DNA of 64,000 bases from Phycisphaerales bacterium. GTDB taxonomy: Bacteria > Planctomycetota > Phycisphaerae > Phycisphaerales > UBA1924. The stretch is from positions 11,500 to 75,499 of the forward strand of contig JADYYE010000107.1 of NCBI GenBank assembly GCA_020853815.1. Direction: 5' to 3'. The position numbers were made by a program, and so were the translations under genes. This document shows positions 25,215 through 48,654 of the stretch, piece by piece. Positions within the stretch are counted from its first letter, which is position 1, and the number at the start of each line of letters is the position of its first letter. The notes under the pieces were generated by a model that was given only the letters and a program-made list of their open reading frames with translations, had not been told where the DNA came from and searched no databases.

Positions 25215-25242
25215 TTGACAAGCAGGGAGGGGGGGGTATTCT
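25215..25242 (+). promoter_or_regulatory. candidate sigma70-type promoter with G8 tract in the spacer
   Basis: TTGACA (25215-25220), then a 16-nt spacer ending in GGGGGGGG (25229-25236), then TATTCT (25237-25242). This lies about 50 nt upstream of the ATG at 25295. Confidence 0.4.
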
Positions 25243-25294
25243 GCGCACGATCGTTGGGCCGGACTCCTGACGTACATTATTCAAGGGGAGTGTG

Positions 25295-25573
25295 ATGAAG
25301 CGTTCCTCTCGGGTGCTGAGGCTTGGGTTGTGCTTCATTGCGGGTTTGGCGGGCAGGGCGTTTGCCGACGAATGGCCGTTTCCCTGGCCGCCGGACCCCA
25401 CCCCGGGGGGTGCGCTGTGCGGGCACAACGCGGGGTGCTACGAGCGATCAAGCTTCTACGACTGCCGTCGCTGTTGTGAGGCAAATTGCGACGACAGTAA
25501 CAATTGCAACAATGCCTGCTGGAACCACTTCTGCCGCTTTAGTTCCTCCGATCCGACCTGTCCGCAAGCGTAA
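25295..25573 (+). CDS. small secreted cysteine-rich protein (10 Cys), module copy 1
   Basis: GGGGAG SD lies 4 nt before the ATG. Signal peptide ends AFA|DE. The mature ~68 aa align with 29961..30233 and all 10 Cys are conserved. Confidence 0.7.
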   Translation: MKRSSRVLRLGLCFIAGLAGRAFADEWPFPWPPDPTPGGALCGHNAGCYERSSFYDCRRCCEANCDDSNNCNNACWNHFCRFSSSDPTCPQA

Positions 25574-25642
25574 GACTCCCGGTGGTTGTGGCCGCAACCG
25601 TTGCGGACCATGAAGTATCGCGGCGGGGGTACGGAGAAAAAC

Positions 25643-26257
25643 ATGCGGGGGCGTCGGCTCACGAGCGCGTTCGGTGCGTTGAGAGAGCGTCCGAGGCGGA
25701 CGATGGTTCTGTTCGGCGTCGTCCTGATCGGGGGTGGGTGGCTCGTCGGAAGCTGGTTGCTCGGGGAACGGCACCGGAAGGAGCGTGATGAGCGCATCCG
25801 CGCCGAGGCCGTTGAGTTCTCCAAGAAAACCGGTGCAGGTATGGACGCGTCGGTTGCGATCTGCACGATGGGCGTGGACCCCGACCAGCTCCAGAAGCTG
25901 CCGCTGGATGAGTTGAAGCGCTGGAGCATTTGGTACTCGGAGTTCGAGGGCAAGGATCGTCGCCGGGTGGCCGGATATTGCAACGCGCTGTTCCATCCCG
26001 CCTCGATCAGGAATTTCAGACAGGAACAGCTGGAGATCGCGCGGAACGCCACCAGGGAGATCATCGGAGAGTTCTGGAACGATCCCAAGATCATCGGGCA
26101 GGCCTATCTCATCGCGGTCGGCCTCGGGATGCGGGACGAGCCATACATTCAAGAAATGGCGCTCGATACGATTCAAGCCCCGGGGATGGCGCCCGAGTTG
26201 ATCAGCATGATCTCCCACTCCGTACTTCCCAAGAAGAAGAGCGAAAAGGAAAAATAG
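25643..26257 (+). CDS. single-pass membrane protein, module copy 1
   Basis: GGAG lies 6 nt before the ATG at 25643. TM helix MVLFGVVLIGGGWLVGSWLL. The block LEIARNATREIIGEFWNDPKIIGQAYLIAVGLGMRDEPYIQEMA is nearly identical in 30246..30842. Confidence 0.7.
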   Translation: MRGRRLTSAFGALRERPRRTMVLFGVVLIGGGWLVGSWLLGERHRKERDERIRAEAVEFSKKTGAGMDASVAICTMGVDPDQLQKLPLDELKRWSIWYSEFEGKDRRRVAGYCNALFHPASIRNFRQEQLEIARNATREIIGEFWNDPKIIGQAYLIAVGLGMRDEPYIQEMALDTIQAPGMAPELISMISHSVLPKKKSEKEK

Positions 26258-26259
26258 CC

Positions 26260-27393
26260 ATGCCGACGGGAAACCACTCGGCGCAACGTCACCACTCTCT
26301 CGCTCCGAGGGGGAGACCGCCGGGGCGCCGCGGGGGTTTCTCTCTAGTTGAGCTGCTGGTCGTGATCGGGATCGTTGCTGTATTGGTCGGGCGTACTCTC
26401 CCGGCGCTCGCGGCCGCGAAGGCGCGCGCCGCGCGGGCGGCGTGCTTGTCGAATCTCAGAGGACTCGGGCAGGCTGTTGCCCAGTACCGAAGCCGGCACC
26501 AGGATCGCTTCCCGGACGCGGACTTGCTCCCGGACATCCCGGCCGGAAAGCCCGGCGTGATCGAACCCCTCTCACCTTTCTTGGACTGCGCCCTTCCTCG
26601 CGTTGGCGCGGCGGGCGATGTCGAAACGGACGCCCCGTGGCGCTGTCGCTCCGACGCAGTCGTCGCGCGACGCTTCGGAATGAGCTACGAGTATGAACTC
26701 GCGACGCTGATCATGGCGTACAAACTTGGCGGCACGCAGAACCCGCACGCCAAAGTCGCGAACACGGCGGACACCGACGGCGGCCTGGTCCTCTTCTCGG
26801 ACGCAGGCGCCGCCGCGCGACTTGCCGCGGGTGATTCAGCCCCCTGGCACCGCGGCCCAAACGGAAAAGAGCGCAACTCGCTCTTCGCGGACGGCCGCGC
26901 GGATTGGGAGAAGAATTCGCCGACCCGCGCAACACGCCGCGGGCCGCCGCTTGCCCCGCGCCGACGACGGACGAACGGAGAGCCGATCCGCCTCCTCTTC
27001 GCCCTCAGTCCACGCTCGCCCTCGCCATCGGCCTCGACAACTCCAGCATCCGATCAACCGCCAAGAGCGCCTGCGCGCACCTTCTCCGGCACGCTGATCT
27101 GGTTCACAACCTTCGCCTTGCCGTCCTTCGACAACGCGCCCGCCATCGCTCATCGCGCCGACGAGCGGGAGGCATCGCGAACCCGCACACCTCGGGCGGG
27201 ACGGCGGATCAACATGCCAGCACTGGCGAAGAAAAGAGTCACGGCCCCCGGCGCGGGCACAACCCGCCAGACCACATGGTTCGTCAAATCGGAGACGTAC
27301 AAATGCCCGGCGTCGTCAAAGGTGAGGCCGCTGATCTGGCCGAACCCCGAACCGACCTGTTGTACCGCGCCGCCGGCGCGCGGCAGCGAGTAG
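26260..27393 (+). CDS. prepilin-type N-terminal cleavage/methylation protein (H-X9-DG-like), module copy 1, abnormally extended 3' end
   Basis: GFSLVELLVVIGIVAVLV leader/helix. Aligns with 30839..31501 up to ADGRADWEK (~26915). The frame then stays open for a further ~480 nt through the nadA fragment and the antisense of the next gene. Confidence 0.65.
   Translation: MPTGNHSAQRHHSLAPRGRPPGRRGGFSLVELLVVIGIVAVLVGRTLPALAAAKARAARAACLSNLRGLGQAVAQYRSRHQDRFPDADLLPDIPAGKPGVIEPLSPFLDCALPRVGAAGDVETDAPWRCRSDAVVARRFGMSYEYELATLIMAYKLGGTQNPHAKVANTADTDGGLVLFSDAGAAARLAAGDSAPWHRGPNGKERNSLFADGRADWEKNSPTRATRRGPPLAPRRRRTNGEPIRLLFALSPRSPSPSASTTPASDQPPRAPARTFSGTLIWFTTFALPSFDNAPAIAHRADEREASRTRTPRAGRRINMPALAKKRVTAPGAGTTRQTTWFVKSETYKCPASSKVRPLIWPNPEPTCCTAPPARGSE
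27004..27145 (-). pseudogene. duplicated, frameshifted fragment of the nadA 3' end
   Basis: By hand alignment it is about 90% identical to 28577-28720 (the last ~47 codons and stop of nadA). A 2-nt deletion breaks the frame. Confidence 0.8.
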
Positions 27394-28133
27394 AGATTCT
27401 CGCCGTCACCGACGATGAACGAATCGGTCGACGGCTGATACACCATCGCATCGGGGAGAGACCAGGCATGACCGCCATCGGAGACCTTGGCAATCGACCC
27501 GTCCGGCGCGATCGCCCAGACGCCGAGGTCTTCCAGCGTCTCGGTGCAGTACAGGCCGCCCGCCGCGAACTGGATGGAACGCACGACCGACAATTTGGGC
27601 GAGGAAACCAGCGTCTGCGCAGGGCTGCCGGCAAACAACAATTCAACATCGGCGCCGTCCCGTGCGTTACCGACAACCGCCGTTCCAGCGGTGAAATACG
27701 TGCCGTCCTTGTCAATGACCATGCTCGACTGATTGGGTGATCCGCTCGCGCTCGCCCAGAGGGTCGTTATGCCGGTCGTAATCTCGGTGCGATACACCGG
27801 GCCTTCCGTCGAGGCGTAGACATAGCCGTCGTACACATCAATCCCGTCGGGGTCTTCGGGTGTGATCGAGCCGAACGCGACCGCCGCGCCCCCGCCCGCC
27901 GGAATCCGATAAATATCGGCCGCCCCGTTGCTCGGTGAGTGGTGTCCGGCGAAAAGAACCCCCCCCGGCCCGAACGCGAGCTCGAACGGGTTCGTCGCCG
28001 TGGCATAGACGCTCGCCGGGTTGCCCAGCCAAGTCGGCTGAGCGCACGCCGAGCTCGTCACAAAGACACAAGCGCAAACAGCGATGAGCGCGCTTGAACG
28101 AGAAAACGATCCGCCATTATGATTCTTTCCCAT
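27150..28133 (-). CDS. secreted beta-propeller (NHL/SMP-30-like) protein with PEP-CTERM-like tail
   Basis: GAGGAG lies 8 nt before the ATG at 28133. Signal peptide LIAVCACVFVTSSACAQP. Repeated G..Y/L-strand motifs (LYCTE, LYSLP, LYVSD). C-terminus VPAPGAVTLFFASAGMLIRR resembles a PEP-CTERM sorting signal. Confidence 0.7.
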   Translation of the reverse strand: MGKNHNGGSFSRSSALIAVCACVFVTSSACAQPTWLGNPASVYATATNPFELAFGPGGVLFAGHHSPSNGAADIYRIPAGGGAAVAFGSITPEDPDGIDVYDGYVYASTEGPVYRTEITTGITTLWASASGSPNQSSMVIDKDGTYFTAGTAVVGNARDGADVELLFAGSPAQTLVSSPKLSVVRSIQFAAGGLYCTETLEDLGVWAIAPDGSIAKVSDGGHAWSLPDAMVYQPSTDSFIVGDGENLYSLPRAGGAVQQVGSGFGQISGLTFDDAGHLYVSDLTNHVVWRVVPAPGAVTLFFASAGMLIRRPARGVRVRDASRSSAR

Positions 28134-28577
28134 CTCTCTTCTCCTCAAAGGACACCGCCGAGACTACTGGGTGCTTGACCCCACTTCAAGCACAATTCCG
28201 CCCGGCTCTCCTTTATTTTCAGGATCACACAATCCCAATTCTCGGACCTTGGGACTTCGCTTTCGCCGCGTTGCGACGCGCGGGGGAGAGGTGCCGCATC
28301 AAGGGCGACCGGCCTACGCGCCCAGTTCACCGCTTCAGCTCTACGTCCTCGAGCCCCGCGCCTTCGGACGCCGGACCTGATACGGATTCTGCTTGGAAAC
28401 CGCGCGTGACTTGGGCTACCCCCACGCTCCGCGTGGGGTTCCTTCAGGCCCTCCAAGCGCATGTTCCAACGAGAATCCGTATGAGGCATTGCGAAGGTCC
28501 GGGTCGACGCAACGAGATCGCCCGTTCGCGCCGAACTCACTCGACCACTTGACCACTTTGCCACTTTTCGCTTGGCC

Positions 28578-29819
28578 TCAATCCACGCCCGCCTTCGCCC
28601 CCGGCCTCGACAACTCCAGCATCCGATCGACCGCCAACAGCGCCTGCTCGCGCACCTTCCCCGGCACGCTGATCTGGTTCACGATCTTCGCCTTGCCGTC
28701 CTTCGACAGGCCGCCCGCCAGGTGATCGAGCACCCACAACAAATGCGGCTCATCGATCCGGTACATCGTCGTGCACAGGCACTGACAATCGCTCAGGATG
28801 CGCACCTCAACGCCCCGTGCCGCGGCCTCTTTCGCAAGCCTTCCCACCAGGTGCGTCTCGGTACCAACCGCCCAGCGCGATCCCGGCGCCGACGCGCGGA
28901 TCGCCTGGATGATGAACTCCGTCGACCCCGACAAGTCCGCGAGGTCCACAACCTCTTTGCAGCACTCCGGGTGAACCAGGATCTTCACGCCCTCGCGCGT
29001 CGCGCCCGCCGCCTTCTCGCGCTCGTTTTCCTCGCGGATCGCGCGGCAGTGCTCCGGGCGGAACAGCTTGTGAACCGAGCAATGCCCCGCCCACAGGATC
29101 ACCTCCGCCCGCTCGATCGCCCCGCGCGATGAGCCGCCCAGCTCCTTGCCCGCGTGCGCCGCGCGCGGGTCATAGAGCGCCGCCCGCGTGGCGACATCGA
29201 TCCCCGCCGCCGCGGCCGTGTTCCGCCCCAGGTGCTGATCGGGCAGGAACAAAACCTTGATCTCCTCGCCCGGGCGCGTCGGGATCGTGCCGCCCGCGCG
29301 GGCCCACGCGAAGACCTGCCTTGCGTTCGAGCTGGTGCAGCACGCGCCGCCGTTCGCTCCGACAAACGCCTTGATCGCCGCCGACGAGTTCACATAGGTG
29401 ATGGGCACGACACGCGCGTTCAGTTTCGCGTCCTTGATCACGCGCTGGATCGAATCCCACGCCTCGACCGTGTCGTCGTACTGCGCCATGTCCGCCATCG
29501 AGCAGCCCGCGGAAAGATCGGGCAAGATCACCGCGACATGGTCGGGCGTCAGCATGTCCGCCGTCTCGGCCATGAAATGCACGCCGCAGAACACGACGTA
29601 CTTCACCGGGCGTTCCTTGGCGACGCGGGCGGCGACCTGCGAGAGCTTGAGCGAATCGCCCGTCGCGTCGGCGTGCCTCACGACCTGATCGGTCTGGTAG
29701 TGGTGGCCCAGGATGAAGAGCGAATCGCCGAGCTCCTTGCGGCGCGCGTCGATCCGGGCCGCGAGCTCGTCCTCGCTCAGCGTGCGATACACCTCGGGGA
29801 GTGATGGTTGCCAGAGCAC
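28578..29819 (-). CDS. nadA: quinolinate synthase NadA
   Basis: ILGHHYQ, VVFCGVHFMAETA, ILPDLSAGCSMADMA, CCTSSNA and HPEC blocks are NadA signatures. GTG start at 29819. Confidence 0.9.
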   Translation of the reverse strand: MLWQPSLPEVYRTLSEDELAARIDARRKELGDSLFILGHHYQTDQVVRHADATGDSLKLSQVAARVAKERPVKYVVFCGVHFMAETADMLTPDHVAVILPDLSAGCSMADMAQYDDTVEAWDSIQRVIKDAKLNARVVPITYVNSSAAIKAFVGANGGACCTSSNARQVFAWARAGGTIPTRPGEEIKVLFLPDQHLGRNTAAAAGIDVATRAALYDPRAAHAGKELGGSSRGAIERAEVILWAGHCSVHKLFRPEHCRAIREENEREKAAGATREGVKILVHPECCKEVVDLADLSGSTEFIIQAIRASAPGSRWAVGTETHLVGRLAKEAAARGVEVRILSDCQCLCTTMYRIDEPHLLWVLDHLAGGLSKDGKAKIVNQISVPGKVREQALLAVDRMLELSRPGAKAGVD

Positions 29820-29878
29820 GCGGGGATGGTAGTAATCCCGGGGTTAGACGGGATGCCAAACTCGACTTGACGGGTTGA

Positions 29879-29893
29879 GGGGGGGGGGGGGGG
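29879..29893. repeat. G15 homopolymer in the nadA / module-2 divergent intergenic region
   Basis: 15 consecutive G counted directly. It is preceded by TTGACG (29867-29872) and followed by ATAGGCT. Confidence 0.95.
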
Positions 29894-29960
29894 ATAGGCT
29901 CGGAGGAGGGTCGTGAACGATTCTGTGCGATAGACCAGCTTGTTGAAGGGACTCGAACTG

Positions 29961-30233
29961 ATGCAAACGCGAAACATCACCCGTCTCGGCCTGTGCTTTG
30001 CCGCTGGGATTGCGTGCTCCGCCATCGCCGACGGGTGGCCATATCCTTGGCCACCGGACCCGAACCCAGGCGGCGCTTTGTGCGGCTACCAATCCGGGTG
30101 CCAAGACAAGGCAGACTTCAACTCCTGCACGCGTTGCTGTGATACCCATTGCGACGCGAGTAATAATTGCTATAATGCGTGCTGGTTCTTCTTCTGCACC
30201 AACGGCAAGACCAGTGCCGGCTGCCCACAGTGA
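29961..30233 (+). CDS. small secreted cysteine-rich protein (10 Cys), module copy 2
   Basis: MQTRNITRLGLCFAAGIACSAIA|DG signal. The mature part aligns with 25295..25573 (WPyPWPPDPxPGGALCG...RCC...SNNC.NACW..FC...CPQ). Confidence 0.7.
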   Translation: MQTRNITRLGLCFAAGIACSAIADGWPYPWPPDPNPGGALCGYQSGCQDKADFNSCTRCCDTHCDASNNCYNACWFFFCTNGKTSAGCPQ

Positions 30234-30245
30234 CAGGATTAGACG

Positions 30246-30842
30246 ATGCGGACCAACGACCTCACGCGTGGCGCGTCTTCGCAGAGTCGGCGCCGAGTAG
30301 CGGTTGTGCTGGCAGGGTTGTCCTTGATCGCCTCCGGGTGGCTTGGCGGCCGGGCGATCCTTCGCGAGATGCACCGGCGGGATCGGGCGTCCCAAGTCCA
30401 CGCCGAAGCAGTTGAGTACGCCCAGAAAGTTCATGTGAGCATGGAGGTCGCAACCGCCATTTGTGAACTTTGCGGCGACCCCGGCGCGATTGCGCGCATG
30501 TCCCCGACGGAGCTGCGCCGGTTGGCGACGCGGTACGCGGACTTTGAAGGCCCCGACCGCGCACGCGTCGCCAGGTATTGCAACGGGCTGTTTCATCCCG
30601 CCTCCATTCGAGAGTTGAGTGACGAGCAATTGGAAATCGCCCGGAACGCCACCCGCGACATCATCGGTGAGTTCTGGAACGACCCCAAGATACTGGGTCA
30701 GGCGTACCTCGTCGCGGCCGGACTTGGTCTGAGGGATGATCCATACATCAAAGAGATGGCAAACCAGACCTTGCAAGAGCCCGGGCTTGATCCAACGCTC
30801 GCCGACACGGTCATCGTGGCCATTCTGCGCCCTCAGAAGTGA
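30246..30842 (+). CDS. single-pass membrane protein, module copy 2
   Basis: ATG lies 12 nt after the previous stop. TM helix VAVVLAGLSLIASGWLGG. Conserved C-terminal block shared with 25643..26257. Confidence 0.7.
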   Translation: MRTNDLTRGASSQSRRRVAVVLAGLSLIASGWLGGRAILREMHRRDRASQVHAEAVEYAQKVHVSMEVATAICELCGDPGAIARMSPTELRRLATRYADFEGPDRARVARYCNGLFHPASIRELSDEQLEIARNATRDIIGEFWNDPKILGQAYLVAAGLGLRDDPYIKEMANQTLQEPGLDPTLADTVIVAILRPQK

Positions 30843-31501
30843 CGCCGGGACCGGAGTACGCAGTGCACGCCGCCTCTCAAATGCTCGCTCGAATGGCGGC
30901 CCGCAGGCCGTCCTCCCAGCCCACTGGGTTCACGCTCATCGAGCTCTTGGTCGTCCTTGGGATCGTGGCTCTCCTGATCGCGATCTCGCTTCCCGCGCTG
31001 GCTTCAGCTCGCGCCACGGCCGCCAGAACAACATGCCTGTCAAACCTTCGAAGCCTGGGGCAGGCTCTTGCGTTGTACCGAAACGCCCACCAGGGGCTCT
31101 TTCCCGATTCCGCGATCCTGCCCGATCTTCCCGCCGGGAAGCCCGGACTGATCGAACCTCTCTCGGCACACATGGATGGCGCCCGTCCTCAACTCGGTCC
31201 GACGGGCGAGGTTGATGCGGCGCTCCCGTGGCGCTGCCCGCCGGATCGGGTGGTGGCAAACAGGTTCGGAATGAGCTACGAGTATGAACTCGCGGCCTTG
31301 GTCCAGGCCTACAAGATGGACGGCATCCAAAACGCCATGAGCCGAGTTTCACGCCAGGCCGACGACACGCGCCTGATCGTCCTCGCCGACGCGCCGATCT
31401 CCCTCCGATATGCCGCGGGCGATTCGACACCCTGGCATCACGGGCCGGACGGAAAGGACCGCAACGCCCTGCGCTCCGATGGCGGCGCGGACTGGAACTG
31501 A
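30839..31501 (+). CDS. prepilin-type N-terminal cleavage/methylation protein (H-X9-DG-like), module copy 2
   Basis: GTGA start/stop overlap with the previous gene (alternative ATGs at 30881 and 30893). [23 protein letters not shown]. The C-terminal WHHGPDGKDRNALRSDGGADW resembles the H-X9-DG region with longer spacing. Confidence 0.75.
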   Translation: MTPGPEYAVHAASQMLARMAARRPSSQPTGFTLIELLVVLGIVALLIAISLPALASARATAARTTCLSNLRSLGQALALYRNAHQGLFPDSAILPDLPAGKPGLIEPLSAHMDGARPQLGPTGEVDAALPWRCPPDRVVANRFGMSYEYELAALVQAYKMDGIQNAMSRVSRQADDTRLIVLADAPISLRYAAGDSTPWHHGPDGKDRNALRSDGGADWN

Positions 31502-36148: not shown

Positions 36149-36271
36149 CGTTCCAGCAAACATTTACACATCATCTTGCCACCCACCGGACCGCCTTGGT
36201 CCGAGAAAAACACCCCGCACGGGTGCCGGATGAGGCCATGCCCAATGCCGAACGAAAGGCGGAAAATGGCC

Positions 36272-36300
36272 TTGACGTGGGGGGGATGTGCGGCTATCTT
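36272..36300 (+). promoter_or_regulatory. candidate sigma70-type promoter
   Basis: TTGACG (36272-36277), then a 17-nt spacer containing G7, then TATCTT (36295-36300). It lies in a lower-GC stretch with no convincing ORF before about 36669. Confidence 0.4.
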
Positions 36301-46601: not shown

Positions 46602-46750
46602 TGAGGGCGCGGAGCGCGATGACTCGGTCGAATGGGCGCGCGGGGCAACCCGGGGCGTGTCGGTCGGTTGAATTGGTCCGAGGATGGCCTGTTGAGGCTG
46701 GCGGGGCGGCGTGATTGGGCGAGCGGCATCGGCGGTGCGTGGGGTTGAAC

Positions 46751-47524
46751 ATGCGTCAGTGGGTGCGCGTGACAGGGCGGCGGATGAGCGGCGGGCCTGG
46801 CGTTCGCCGGTCGTCGGGCGGGGCTGATTCGCGGGCGCGCGGATTCACGCTGATCGAGCTGCTGGTGGTCATCGCGATCATCGCGGTGCTGATCTCGATT
46901 CTGCTCCCGGCGTTGTCGCAGAGCCGCGAGGCGTCGCGGCGCCTGAAATGCCTGACGAACCTGAAGGGCATCGGGATGGGGCTGTCGATCTACATGCAGG
47001 AGAAGTCCAAGGGGGTGTTGCCAAGGGTTCGGCCTCTGCATGACGACAGTTCGTCGGAGAATGATCCGTCGCTCTTGGACATACTGGAGGAGTATGTGAG
47101 CGCCCCCAGGCCGCGCAAGGGGGAGGACGAGCTGTACATCGTGGCGGACCCGTACAAGTGTCCGTCGGATGTATCGTCGAACTCGGAGGAGGACGCGTTC
47201 CGCCCCGTATGGCAGACGACGGGGACGAGTTATGACTACATCCCGGCGATCTACATGCTGGCGGCGGAGGTGATCGGGCTGGTGAACCCGGACCGGACGG
47301 CGCGGGCGGTGACCAAGGCGTATGAGAAGTGGAAGGACTCGGGGAAGGACTGGTCGATCCTGGTGGACGCGGGGGACTGGCACACGCAGAAGAAGAACGC
47401 GATCCCGCGGAACGGGCTGTTCATGTTCGACTGGCGGGCGGACTGGGCGGGCGTGGCGACGGAGGAGGAGAGCACGGAGTTTCTGAAGGACGTGCTGAAG
47501 TTCGGGAACTCGCCGTTGAATTAG
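46751..47524 (+). CDS. prepilin-type N-terminal cleavage/methylation protein (DUF1559/H-X9-DG-like), solitary third paralogue
   Basis: [41 protein letters not shown]. The C-terminal [24 protein letters not shown] parallels the module proteins. Confidence 0.8.
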
Positions 47525-47526
47525 AA

Positions 47527-47603
47527 GGCACTAGGCACTAGGCACTAGGCACTGGGCACTAGGCACTGGGCACTAGGCACTTGGCACTAGGCACTAGGCA
47601 CTT
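47527..47603 (+). repeat. heptamer tandem array GGCACTA, 11 units
   Basis: Starts 2 nt after the TAG stop at 47522-47524. Variants are ggcactg and ggcactt. Confidence 0.95.
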
Positions 47604-47615
47604 GGGAAAGAAGAA

Positions 47616-47647
47616 GAGGCAAAGAGGCAAAGAGGCAAAGAGGCAAA
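47616..47647 (+). repeat. octamer tandem array GAGGCAAA x4
   Basis: gaggcaaa x4, preceded by GGGAAAGAAGAA. Confidence 0.9.
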
Positions 47648-47796
47648 GAGGGGGAGTGGCGGAGTGACGGAGCGAAGCAAGCCCTGAGCGAGAGCGAGGG
47701 GAAACCGGCGAGACGATCGAGCGGCCGAGCACGCCCTCCCTGACGGTCGGGCTACTGAATAGAGAAGCGCAGCGAGCGGGCAACGGCGAGTGGATC

Positions 47797-48654
47797 ATGA
47801 GTGACACGACCAACAAACCCGGGATGATGCCGAGCCTCTTGGACGAAGTGGCGGCGACGCCGGCGGAGAAGGCGAAGCGGCGGGGGCTGGTCGCGCGCAC
47901 GCGGGCGTCGCTGCGGGCGCGGTTCGATCGCTGGTGGTCGCCGATCGACGCCGACCCGGCGCGGCGACGGCGCTGGATCATGGGCGGGCGGGTGGCGCTG
48001 GGGGCGCTGGTGGTTGGTCTGGGCGTGGGGGCGTACTTCGTGTTCAGGCCCGTGCCGCAGCCTGATTATCTGGACGATCCGCTCAACGATGTTCTCGGCT
48101 ACACGCTGCTGACGGACGAGTTCAACAAGCTGCCGGTGGAGAAGCGGCTGGAGCTGATCGGGCAGCTGGTGCAGCGGTTCAAGTCGATGGACACGGGCGA
48201 TTCGGTGCTGATGGCGAGCTTTGCGGCGGGGATCGCGGGGACGGCGCGGGACCAATTGATGGAGAACGGATCGCGCCTGGCGGTGGACACCTGGGACAAG
48301 TTCGCGGTGGACTATGCCAAGGTGCCGGAGGGAGAGCGCGGGGATTATCTGGACAAGACGTTCGTGGACTTCACGAAGATGATGGAGACGCTGGGCGGCC
48401 GGCCGCGGGACGTGTCGGACGAGGATCGGCTGGCGGAAGGTCGTCGCCAGGCGCAGCGTGATATGGAGCGGATCAAGGAGAACCCGGAGCGGGCGCCGTC
48501 GAGCGAGATGGCGGGGCGGATGTTCCAGTTCATGAACGAGGGCGTGGGGCAGTACGCGTCGGCGTCGCAGCGGGTGCGCGGGCAGCAGATGATGCGGGAC
48601 ATGGTTCGGCGGATGCGCGGCGAGGACATCGTGACGGGCAGGCCGAAGCGGTGA
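47797..48654 (+). CDS. hypothetical single-pass membrane protein
   Basis: TM helix GGRVALGALVVGLGVGAYFVF followed by a helical, charged ~200-aa domain. No family recognised. Confidence 0.6.
   Translation: MSDTTNKPGMMPSLLDEVAATPAEKAKRRGLVARTRASLRARFDRWWSPIDADPARRRRWIMGGRVALGALVVGLGVGAYFVFRPVPQPDYLDDPLNDVLGYTLLTDEFNKLPVEKRLELIGQLVQRFKSMDTGDSVLMASFAAGIAGTARDQLMENGSRLAVDTWDKFAVDYAKVPEGERGDYLDKTFVDFTKMMETLGGRPRDVSDEDRLAEGRRQAQRDMERIKENPERAPSSEMAGRMFQFMNEGVGQYASASQRVRGQQMMRDMVRRMRGEDIVTGRPKR

Follow-up and report, generated by a model that had tools for sequence, protein, structure and literature searches.

What do three small genes do that stand together, in the same order and on the same strand, on both sides of nadA in a planctomycete? 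The question is raised by a stretch of 64,000 nucleotides from a Phycisphaerales bacterium (NCBI GenBank assembly GCA_020853815.1, contig JADYYE010000107.1, positions 11,500 to 75,499 of the forward strand), which was analysed as a whole and is called the window below. The original prediction, read from the letters alone, described a module of a secreted ten-cysteine peptide (G1), a single-pass membrane protein (G2) and a prepilin-like protein (G3) occurring twice around nadA. All six open reading frames (ORFs) are where it placed them. In the ORF listing, two co-oriented modules on the + strand, G1a/G2a/G3a (25295-26919) and G1b/G2b/G3b (29961-31501), flank nadA (28578-29819, minus strand), which matches the NadA model. 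Three envelope-targeted proteins form a self-contained operon, and the window holds it twice.

Layout, age and distribution of the module

The proteins of the two copies align pairwise by BLASTP, as had been proposed, at 55% identity for G1 (E 1e-28), 51% for G2 (E 4e-74) and 59% for G3 (E 2e-76), and the shared blocks on which that proposal leaned (LEIARNATR-IIGEFWNDPKI..., GF(S/T)L(V/I)ELLVV, MSYEYELA and WH.GP.GK.RN...DG.ADW) are all present. Between copies, synonymous sites are saturated (synonymous divergence, dS, 1.3-2.9; non-synonymous divergence, dN, 0.35-0.42), and residual DNA similarity survives only in a C-terminal block of G2 (254 nt, 74% identical). This makes the duplication old, with both copies retained, and the term "old paralogues" apt. 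The genes of each module are tightly spaced or overlapping. For copy a this is as predicted, with a gap of 2 nt between G2 and G3. In copy b, however, the proposed GTGA overlap depends on a GTG start at 30839; ATG codons at 30881 and 30893 are also candidate starts, and gene callers in relatives begin G3b 8 or 18 codons later, which opens a G2b-G3b gap of up to 50 nt. Close coupling of G2 and G3 is clear in copy a and in five related loci (L009, L010, L013, L016, L017). GC content at third codon positions (GC3) is 0.70-0.80 in the module versus 0.87-0.90 in all of its neighbours, which fits an accessory or weakly expressed cassette.

A near-identical relative, contig L001 (51.6 kb, run SRR28514100, Logan assembly collection), carries the same double module around nadA, and further contigs hold copy b with G2 identities of 79-97%. 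For a wider view, contigs encoding distant G2 homologues were fetched and their flanks read, and two loci, L017 and L018, were added from a G1-pattern scan of JGI metagenomes. The full G1-G2-G3 order is found in four further divergent metagenomic lineages (L009, L010/L011, L013 and L017), where the distance between G2 and G3 varies between a 17-nt overlap and a gap of 1 nt. It is partial in two more: L014 has G1-G2 followed by a convergent DUF2238 gene, and L016 has G2-G3 with 72 nt of upstream sequence available. The G2 proteins of these loci with full or partial order are 21-39% identical to those of the window. In L015, which encodes the most distant G2, no G1 lies upstream and the contig ends right after G2. 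The flanking genes change from lineage to lineage (among them topoisomerase-like, aminotransferase, kbl-like and nadA genes), which shows that the module travels as a unit. The proposal that the linkage has been maintained thus holds: a small group of uncultured Phycisphaerales-like bacteria has kept the operon together as a unit, and the module is real and rare, being confined to a handful of metagenomic lineages.

The three proteins

G1a (25295-25573, + strand) is a 92-aa precursor with a Sec-type signal peptide, a Pro/Trp-rich segment DEWPFPWPPDPTPGG and a ten-cysteine domain; cleavage presumably follows AFA. G1b (29961-30233, + strand) is a 90-aa precursor of the same kind, its signal peptide ending in AIA before DGWPYPWPPDPNPGG. 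Read from the sequence, the signal peptide has the typical n-h-AxA layout. The mature protein has exactly 10 Cys in 66-73 residues in all seven lineages and is anionic in six of them, with a net charge of -3 to -5. Every one of the ten cysteines is invariant in an alignment of eight G1 sequences with identities down to 31%, in the pattern C-x5-C-x8-C-x2-CC-x3-C-x5-C-x3-C-x4-C-x8-C. Between G1b of the window and that of contig L007, 33 differences are synonymous and 13 non-synonymous (dN/dS 0.06 at dS ~1). Together with the invariant cysteines, this ratio indicates that G1 is coding and not a chance ORF. By gene, dN/dS is 0.06-0.10 for G1, 0.22-0.25 for G2 and 0.45-0.49 for G3, and G1 is the most constrained of the three.

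A structure model of G1, built from two sequences only, has three short helices (residues 37-44, 53-63 and 68-80) with a predicted local distance difference test (pLDDT) score of 76-85 in the core. Cysteines fall at i/i+3-4 spacing along these predicted helices, including the pair of motifs C60-x3-C64 and C70-x3-C74. The mature N-terminus has no predicted structure (pLDDT <50 up to residue 29, mean 61 over residues 31-40), and yet it is conserved: P29, P31, D33, P34, G37 and G38 are invariant (alignment A5).

Neither G1 nor G2 matched any family in Pfam, NCBIfam, PADLOC or PHROGs. For G1, PDB sequence profiles gave nothing below E 0.7, the two-sequence model had no fold match at all, and a word-indexed search of 5.8 billion proteins with G1b returned no relatives. 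Scans for G1 and for G2 with a few conserved peptide motifs were empty both in one genome per GTDB species and in viral contigs; the two JGI loci were the yield of the G1-pattern scan of metagenomes. We also considered G1 as a lipoprotein and rejected this, for LGLC is not a lipobox and that Cys is absent in L010 and L013. Two potentially inactivating changes of G1b were seen in relatives. Six contigs of one strain cluster (L001-L006; 9716-9988 in L001) have Arg in place of the eighth Cys (C74R, NARW for NACW), and G1b of L023 (85-357) has an in-frame TAA at Tyr71.

G2a (25643-26257, + strand, 204 aa) has one N-terminal membrane anchor and an all-alpha domain. G2b (30246-30842, + strand, 198 aa) is signal-anchored, and its AlphaFold2 model, based on 13 sequences, is confident (pLDDT 85.9, predicted template modelling score 0.72) and predicts an alpha-solenoid-like domain: a long N-terminal helix holds the membrane anchor and about ten short helices follow. 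With a short basic N-tail, one hydrophobic helix and a soluble domain of ~160 residues, the protein would have essentially no cytoplasmic part and would place its domain in the periplasm. None of the residues usual in active sites (His, Cys, Ser, Asp) is invariant, E142 being the sole invariant polar residue. At E <= 0.001 the G2 model had no Foldseek match in PDB or BFVD; the nearest folds are generic ARM/HEAT/TPR peptide-binding solenoids, a loose likeness with a best E of 0.19. A Borrelia surface lipoprotein (6ROC/6QO1, E 0.001 over 70 residues) was set aside as a marginal, local helical similarity.

The G2 family is tiny. The word-indexed search of the 5.8 billion proteins gave five relatives, all close, and an exhaustive search with a G2 profile hidden Markov model, run over 1.84 billion cluster representatives, gave nine proteins, eight of which are credible homologues (P0001, P0006-P0011 and P0013). 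The 90% clusters of G2a and G2b have members in a Phycisphaerales metagenome-assembled genome (MAG), where they appear as "hypothetical protein" under locus tags IT434_12080 and IT434_12100. The ninth protein, P0012 (560 aa), is a weak local match: about six repeats of ...IYDQLEGxDRELIARRFGFDGYQPHT... align with G2 residues 75-111 (FEGxDRxRVARYCxGLF) at E 6e-5, either through a shared short helical motif or by chance. As a lead to a sigma-70 region-4-like helix-turn-helix it was dropped, the match being single, weak and local and the G2 domain being predicted to be periplasmic. With the family libraries empty and the PDB sequence and fold searches without a convincing match, G1 and G2 are new protein families, in line with the prediction that neither belongs to a named one.

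G3a (26260-26919, + strand) and G3b (30839-31501, + strand) are prepilin-type proteins, with RRGG followed by FSLVELLVV and QPTG followed by FTLIELLVV, respectively. Both score above the cut-offs of PF07963 (N_methyl; 23.3 and 26.3 versus 21.2) and TIGR02532 (20.2 and 25.1 versus 16.3), and the profile of their N-terminal helix matches solved pilins and GspG at E 4e-11 to 1e-6. By these matches G3 is a short member (~200 aa) of the type IV pilin/pseudopilin superfamily with a class III signal peptide. It falls short of the GspG equivalog TIGR01710, reaching 25.9 and 37.5 bits over the first 55-60 profile positions against a trusted cut-off of 88.85. For DUF1559/SBP_bac_10 (PF07596, 268 positions, gathering threshold 23.3), G3b likewise stays below, with 15.2 bits over positions 2-41. 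All six members of G3 alignment A7 hit DUF1559 weakly (best E 6e-5), and the relationship looks distant or partial. The H-X9-DG prepilin-associated C-terminal domain (TIGR04294) is marked by a C-terminal His, nine residues and Asp-Gly. That model gave no G3 hit at E <= 1 in the NCBIfam scan; the tail of both copies, WH-x13-DG, resembles it, but with a spacing of 13, not 9. At least 7,897 relatives of G3 were found, the named ones coming from Phycisphaerales, Phycisphaerae or Tepidisphaera MAGs, and together with the N_methyl and TIGR02532 scores this bears out the assignment of the third gene to the expanded planctomycete class of prepilin-like proteins.

G3a does not end where its relative does. 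The stop, TAG in L001, is TCG at 26917-26919 in the window, and the frame reads through for 158 codons to 27393, an extension (26917-27393) antisense to a nadA remnant and an inserted gene. The ancestral gene thus ended at 26919; the read-through is genuine, as a lesion or an extension, or else it stems from a sequencing error. The window also has ~1.57 kb (27003-28720) between G3a and nadA that is absent from L001. On either side of it stands one copy of a 145-nt direct repeat (27003-27145 and 28576-28720, ~90% identical), which is the duplicated 3' end of nadA. The one gene in this segment (27150-28148, minus strand) encodes a 332-aa protein that has a signal peptide and matches a ScyD/ScyE beta-propeller weakly; by eye its C-terminus (VPAPGAVTLFFASAGMLIRRPARG) looks PEP-CTERM-like, and NCBIfam reported no PEP-CTERM.

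A third G3 paralogue (31-35% identical, GC3 0.90) lies at 46715-47524. After it comes a conserved 285-aa single-pass membrane protein of no family (47797-48654). In L019 to L021, as in the window, the pair (46715-48654) directly follows bamA-skp-lpxD-lpxC; in L022 it has another context. The 285-aa protein was tried as an analogue of G2 and shows no homology to it (hhalign probability 0.6%).

Promoter-like sites with a poly-G spacer tract

Upstream of each module is a sigma-70-like promoter with a poly-G tract in its spacer, a feature newly observed here. For module a (25215-25242, + strand) it reads TTGACA, a 16-nt spacer ending in G8 (25229-25236), and TATTCT, with 10 of 12 matches in a promoter scan; the interval first singled out, starting at 25215, opens on its -35 hexamer. 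L001 has the same layout, TTGACA ... G8 - TATTCT with 16 nt. For module b (29867-29900, + strand) the site is TTGACG - GGTTGA - G15 (29879-29893) - A - TAGGCT, with a spacer of 22 nt. In copy b of close relatives the tract has 8 G (L001-L006; TTGACG - GGGTGAA - G8 - A - TAGCCT, spacer 16 nt), 11 (L007; TTGACA - GAGAT - G11 - TAAACT, spacer 16 nt) or 14 (L023; ...GGTAA - G14 - TAGACT at the cut 5' contig end), against 15 in the window, and the flanks are conserved.

The spacer is thus 16 nt in four of the five fully read promoters, with tracts of 8, 8, 8 and 11, and its constancy despite the varying tract supports the hexamers as a genuine promoter. The arrangement TTGAC[AG]...G-run...TAnnCT is common to both paralogues though the surrounding DNA has diverged. 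In the 64 kb there are only three G/C runs of at least 8, two of which are these tracts, and G15 is far beyond Markov expectation. Contingency (phase-variable) promoters are marked by a homopolymer tract in the -35/-10 spacer, by polymorphism of its length among close relatives and by reversible switching of transcription in a population. The first two marks are seen here, and the tract may act as a slipped-strand on/off switch. The constant spacer also sets copy b of the window apart as an expanded variant, probably with a weak or silent promoter, the alternative being an error in the assembly of its homopolymer. Taken together, the G1b lesions, the G3a read-through and the expanded tract of the b promoter suggest that modules are often off or decaying.

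Other runs were seen in and around these loci. The third run of the window, C8 on the + strand at 27959-27966, falls ~60 codons into the inserted 332-aa gene, whose coding strand has it as G8, and could be frameshift-prone. At 36270-36300, TTGACG-T-G7-ATGTGCGGC-TATCTT has a spacer of 17 nt and a G-run immediately behind its -35-like hexamer; promoter spacers with such runs may be more widespread in this genome. L017 has a G32 run (180-212) 11 nt upstream of the G1 start and ~200 nt from the contig end, and this may be the tract in extreme form or an artefact of poly-G sequencing. The L009 promoter, TTGACA-17-TAATTA, has no tract. No RNA element turned up when the region was scanned with Rfam and for tRNAs.

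Readings of function and comparison with known systems

All three proteins carry an envelope-targeting signal: a Sec signal in G1, a signal anchor in G2 and a prepilin motif in G3. We classify the module as an accessory part of the world of type IV filaments and type II secretion systems (T2SS), and find surface display or export the reading most compatible with the data. In the version that we favour, G1 would be the cargo or partner of the pseudopilin G3, G2 a periplasmic adaptor or chaperone and the promoter tract a toggle. We give it a probability of roughly 0.3, every step beyond envelope targeting being inferred. G3, a PulG-like pseudopilin, would be cut by prepilin peptidase and built into a T2SS or type IV filament machine encoded elsewhere. 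G1 would leave the cytoplasm by Sec and fold once in the periplasm; disulfides would staple its small three-helix domain, and its N-terminus (YP.P.DP.PGG), which is Pro-rich, conserved and unstructured, would serve as a handle. G2, tethered to the inner membrane by one helix, would turn a non-enzymatic alpha-solenoid to the periplasm and act as a dedicated adaptor or chaperone, keeping either G1 or G3 at the membrane until a G3-containing filament takes on G1. G1 might then be displayed on the surface or released. Transcription would start from the sigma-70-like promoter, where poly-G slippage would alter spacer length and so switch the module on or off. Signalling is unlikely, for a G2 without a cytoplasmic part cannot transmit to the cytoplasm.

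Several observations weigh against this proposal. No secretin, ATPase, platform protein or prepilin peptidase is encoded in the window, and G1 could simply stay in the periplasm. L014 has G1-G2 without G3, so the pilin may be dispensable, and L015 has a distant G2 without G1. The orientation of G2 is deduced from its sequence, and in the window copies positive charges flank its helix on both sides. As for the toggle, the tract differences are between assemblies, and errors in homopolymer assembly may account for part of them; all six contigs of one strain cluster share G8; and very strong purifying selection such as that on G1 is unusual for phase-variable surface antigens.

The lack of filament machinery nearby would suit a different arrangement, in which G3 stays unpolymerised and anchored in the inner membrane and forms a static complex with G2 and G1, for instance in maintenance of the cell wall or outer membrane; many DUF1559-like paralogues may likewise be non-polymerised, anchored periplasmic proteins. 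The window is rich in genes for such work (glycosyltransferases, SpoIID, amidase, BamA, Skp, LpxD and LpxC), and the third G3 paralogue (46715-47524) is conserved beside bamA-skp-lpxD-lpxC together with another single-pass membrane protein. The module itself, however, has unrelated contexts in other lineages and atypical codon usage, its lesioned copies are tolerated and its distribution is very narrow, which together argue against a core envelope role. We consider a static complex possible but unlikely.

Somewhat less likely still is a toxin/immunity pair, in which G1 would be a Sec-exported, disulfide-rich antibacterial peptide, G2 its membrane immunity protein and G3 an aid to crossing the outer membrane. 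A small secreted Cys-rich peptide does adjoin a membrane protein; there are two copies of the module, its distribution is narrow and its GC3 gives it an accessory look; and some strains have lesions (C74R in L001-L006, the in-frame stop in L023). But G1 has the lowest dN/dS in the operon, the opposite of an arms-race toxin, and its mature form is anionic, and these two facts weaken the idea. Nor did any toxin, bacteriocin or defence model match in the four family libraries, no ATP-binding cassette (ABC) or peptidase exporter is adjacent, and a soluble G2 solenoid of ~160 residues is unlike small multi-pass immunity proteins. Peptide bacteriocins are marked by a peptide that is cationic or amphipathic, an exporter or leader peptidase of their own and fast evolution of the toxin/immunity pair, and these are not the marks of G1-G2.

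A metal or redox module, with G1 keeping its ten cysteines as thiolates and binding Cu(I) or another soft metal in the manner of copper-storage or metallothionein-like proteins, and with G2 and G3 as anchor or escort, seems improbable. Ten invariant cysteines within ~50 residues, at i/i+3-4 on three predicted helices and perhaps on one helix face, are what would be looked for, and module a is directly downstream, on the same strand, of an AhpD/CMD-family redox gene. Against this, Sec export leads into an oxidising compartment that favours disulfides, there are no conserved His or Met ligands, aromatics (W, F) beside the cysteines suggest a packed core, the CMD neighbour is not kept in other loci and no metal-related genes are nearby. 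That G1 is no gene at all, a spurious small ORF in a segmental duplication, as its omission by gene callers in several contigs (L001-L006) and the empty word-indexed search with G1b might suggest, is refuted by the substitution pattern, by an ORF that stays intact with its ten cysteines in lineages 31-56% identical and by its being called as a gene in L007, L010, L013 and L014.

A bolder extension of the cargo reading, which we hold to be doubtful, is that the module is the first recognisable cargo cassette of the pseudopilin expansion in the Planctomycetes-Verrucomicrobia-Chlamydiae (PVC) group. Each of the dozens of PulG-like paralogues would then be a cargo-specific subunit, G3 being tied here to G1, a disulfide-stapled helical mini-protein of a kind not seen before, and to G2, a new solenoid adaptor tethered to the membrane. 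Slippage in the promoter's poly-G tract would toggle the whole cassette, and a free-living planctomycete would in this way phase-vary a factor that it secretes or carries on its surface. With a pilin-like paralogue tied by a conserved operon to an exported mini-protein and a putative adaptor in the periplasm, the module offers a small, concrete system for testing whether such proteins are cargo-specific subunits of a secretion or display filament, and G1, with ~66 residues and 10 invariant Cys, would be well worth a solved structure. The variable poly-G, if confirmed, would be a contingency locus in an environmental planctomycete, for which we know of no described precedent. In the literature searchable here we found no description of an operon that combines mini-protein, adaptor and pseudopilin.

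Parts of the module have counterparts in known systems. Twin CX3C helical-hairpin mini-proteins include the plant alpha-hairpinins and the small Tim/CHCH proteins; G1 resembles them in C60-x3-C64 ... C70-x3-C74 on two consecutive predicted helices with a short loop, but has six more cysteines, a third helix and a bacterial Sec signal, and no homology to them was detected. Phase-variable promoters with homopolymer tracts are those of Neisseria porA/opc and Bordetella fim2/fim3. Here too poly-G stands between -35 and -10 and differs in length between the assemblies of close strains, whereas the bacteria are environmental Phycisphaerales and not host-adapted pathogens.

The closest parallel to the proposed cargo role is in type IVb pili, where TcpF-TcpB of Vibrio cholerae and CofJ-CofB of enterotoxigenic Escherichia coli (ETEC) likewise pair a Sec-exported soluble protein with a pilin-type gene encoded beside it. 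In TcpF and CofJ a flexible N-terminus acts as the secretion signal by hooking onto a minor pilin (PMC9565799). G1 has a flexible, conserved segment right after its signal cleavage site that could likewise be a pilin-binding secretion signal. It has no sequence or fold similarity to TcpF or CofJ, however, and is far smaller (~66 aa, 10 Cys); G3 is short and PulG-like and not a large bimodular minor pilin such as TcpB or CofB; and the third component, G2, has no counterpart there. Type IVb pilus systems have the secreted protein inside the pilus biogenesis operon, whereas no ATPase, platform, secretin or prepilin peptidase gene is found in the window or in the flanks of the related loci.

For G3 the nearest relatives are the PulG-like, DUF1559 and H-X9-DG paralogues. 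Genomes of Planctomycetota and Verrucomicrobiota hold tens of prepilin-type paralogues each, a class whose function is not known (PMC10632474), and in a verrucomicrobium one of 67 pulG-like paralogues lies in an alginate-utilisation gene cluster, most genes of which are alginate-induced (PMC13274419). Alongside TcpF and CofJ, this paralogue is a precedent in favour of the cargo reading. G3 shares with this class its class III signal peptide, the helix that matches GspG and pilins, thousands of relatives in Phycisphaerae and a C-terminal WH...RN.L..DG.ADW that resembles the H-X9-DG tail. It departs from the class in its length of ~200 aa, in scoring below the DUF1559 gathering threshold and in its His-to-DG spacing of 13, and, unlike the members so far described, it is locked to two family-less partners.

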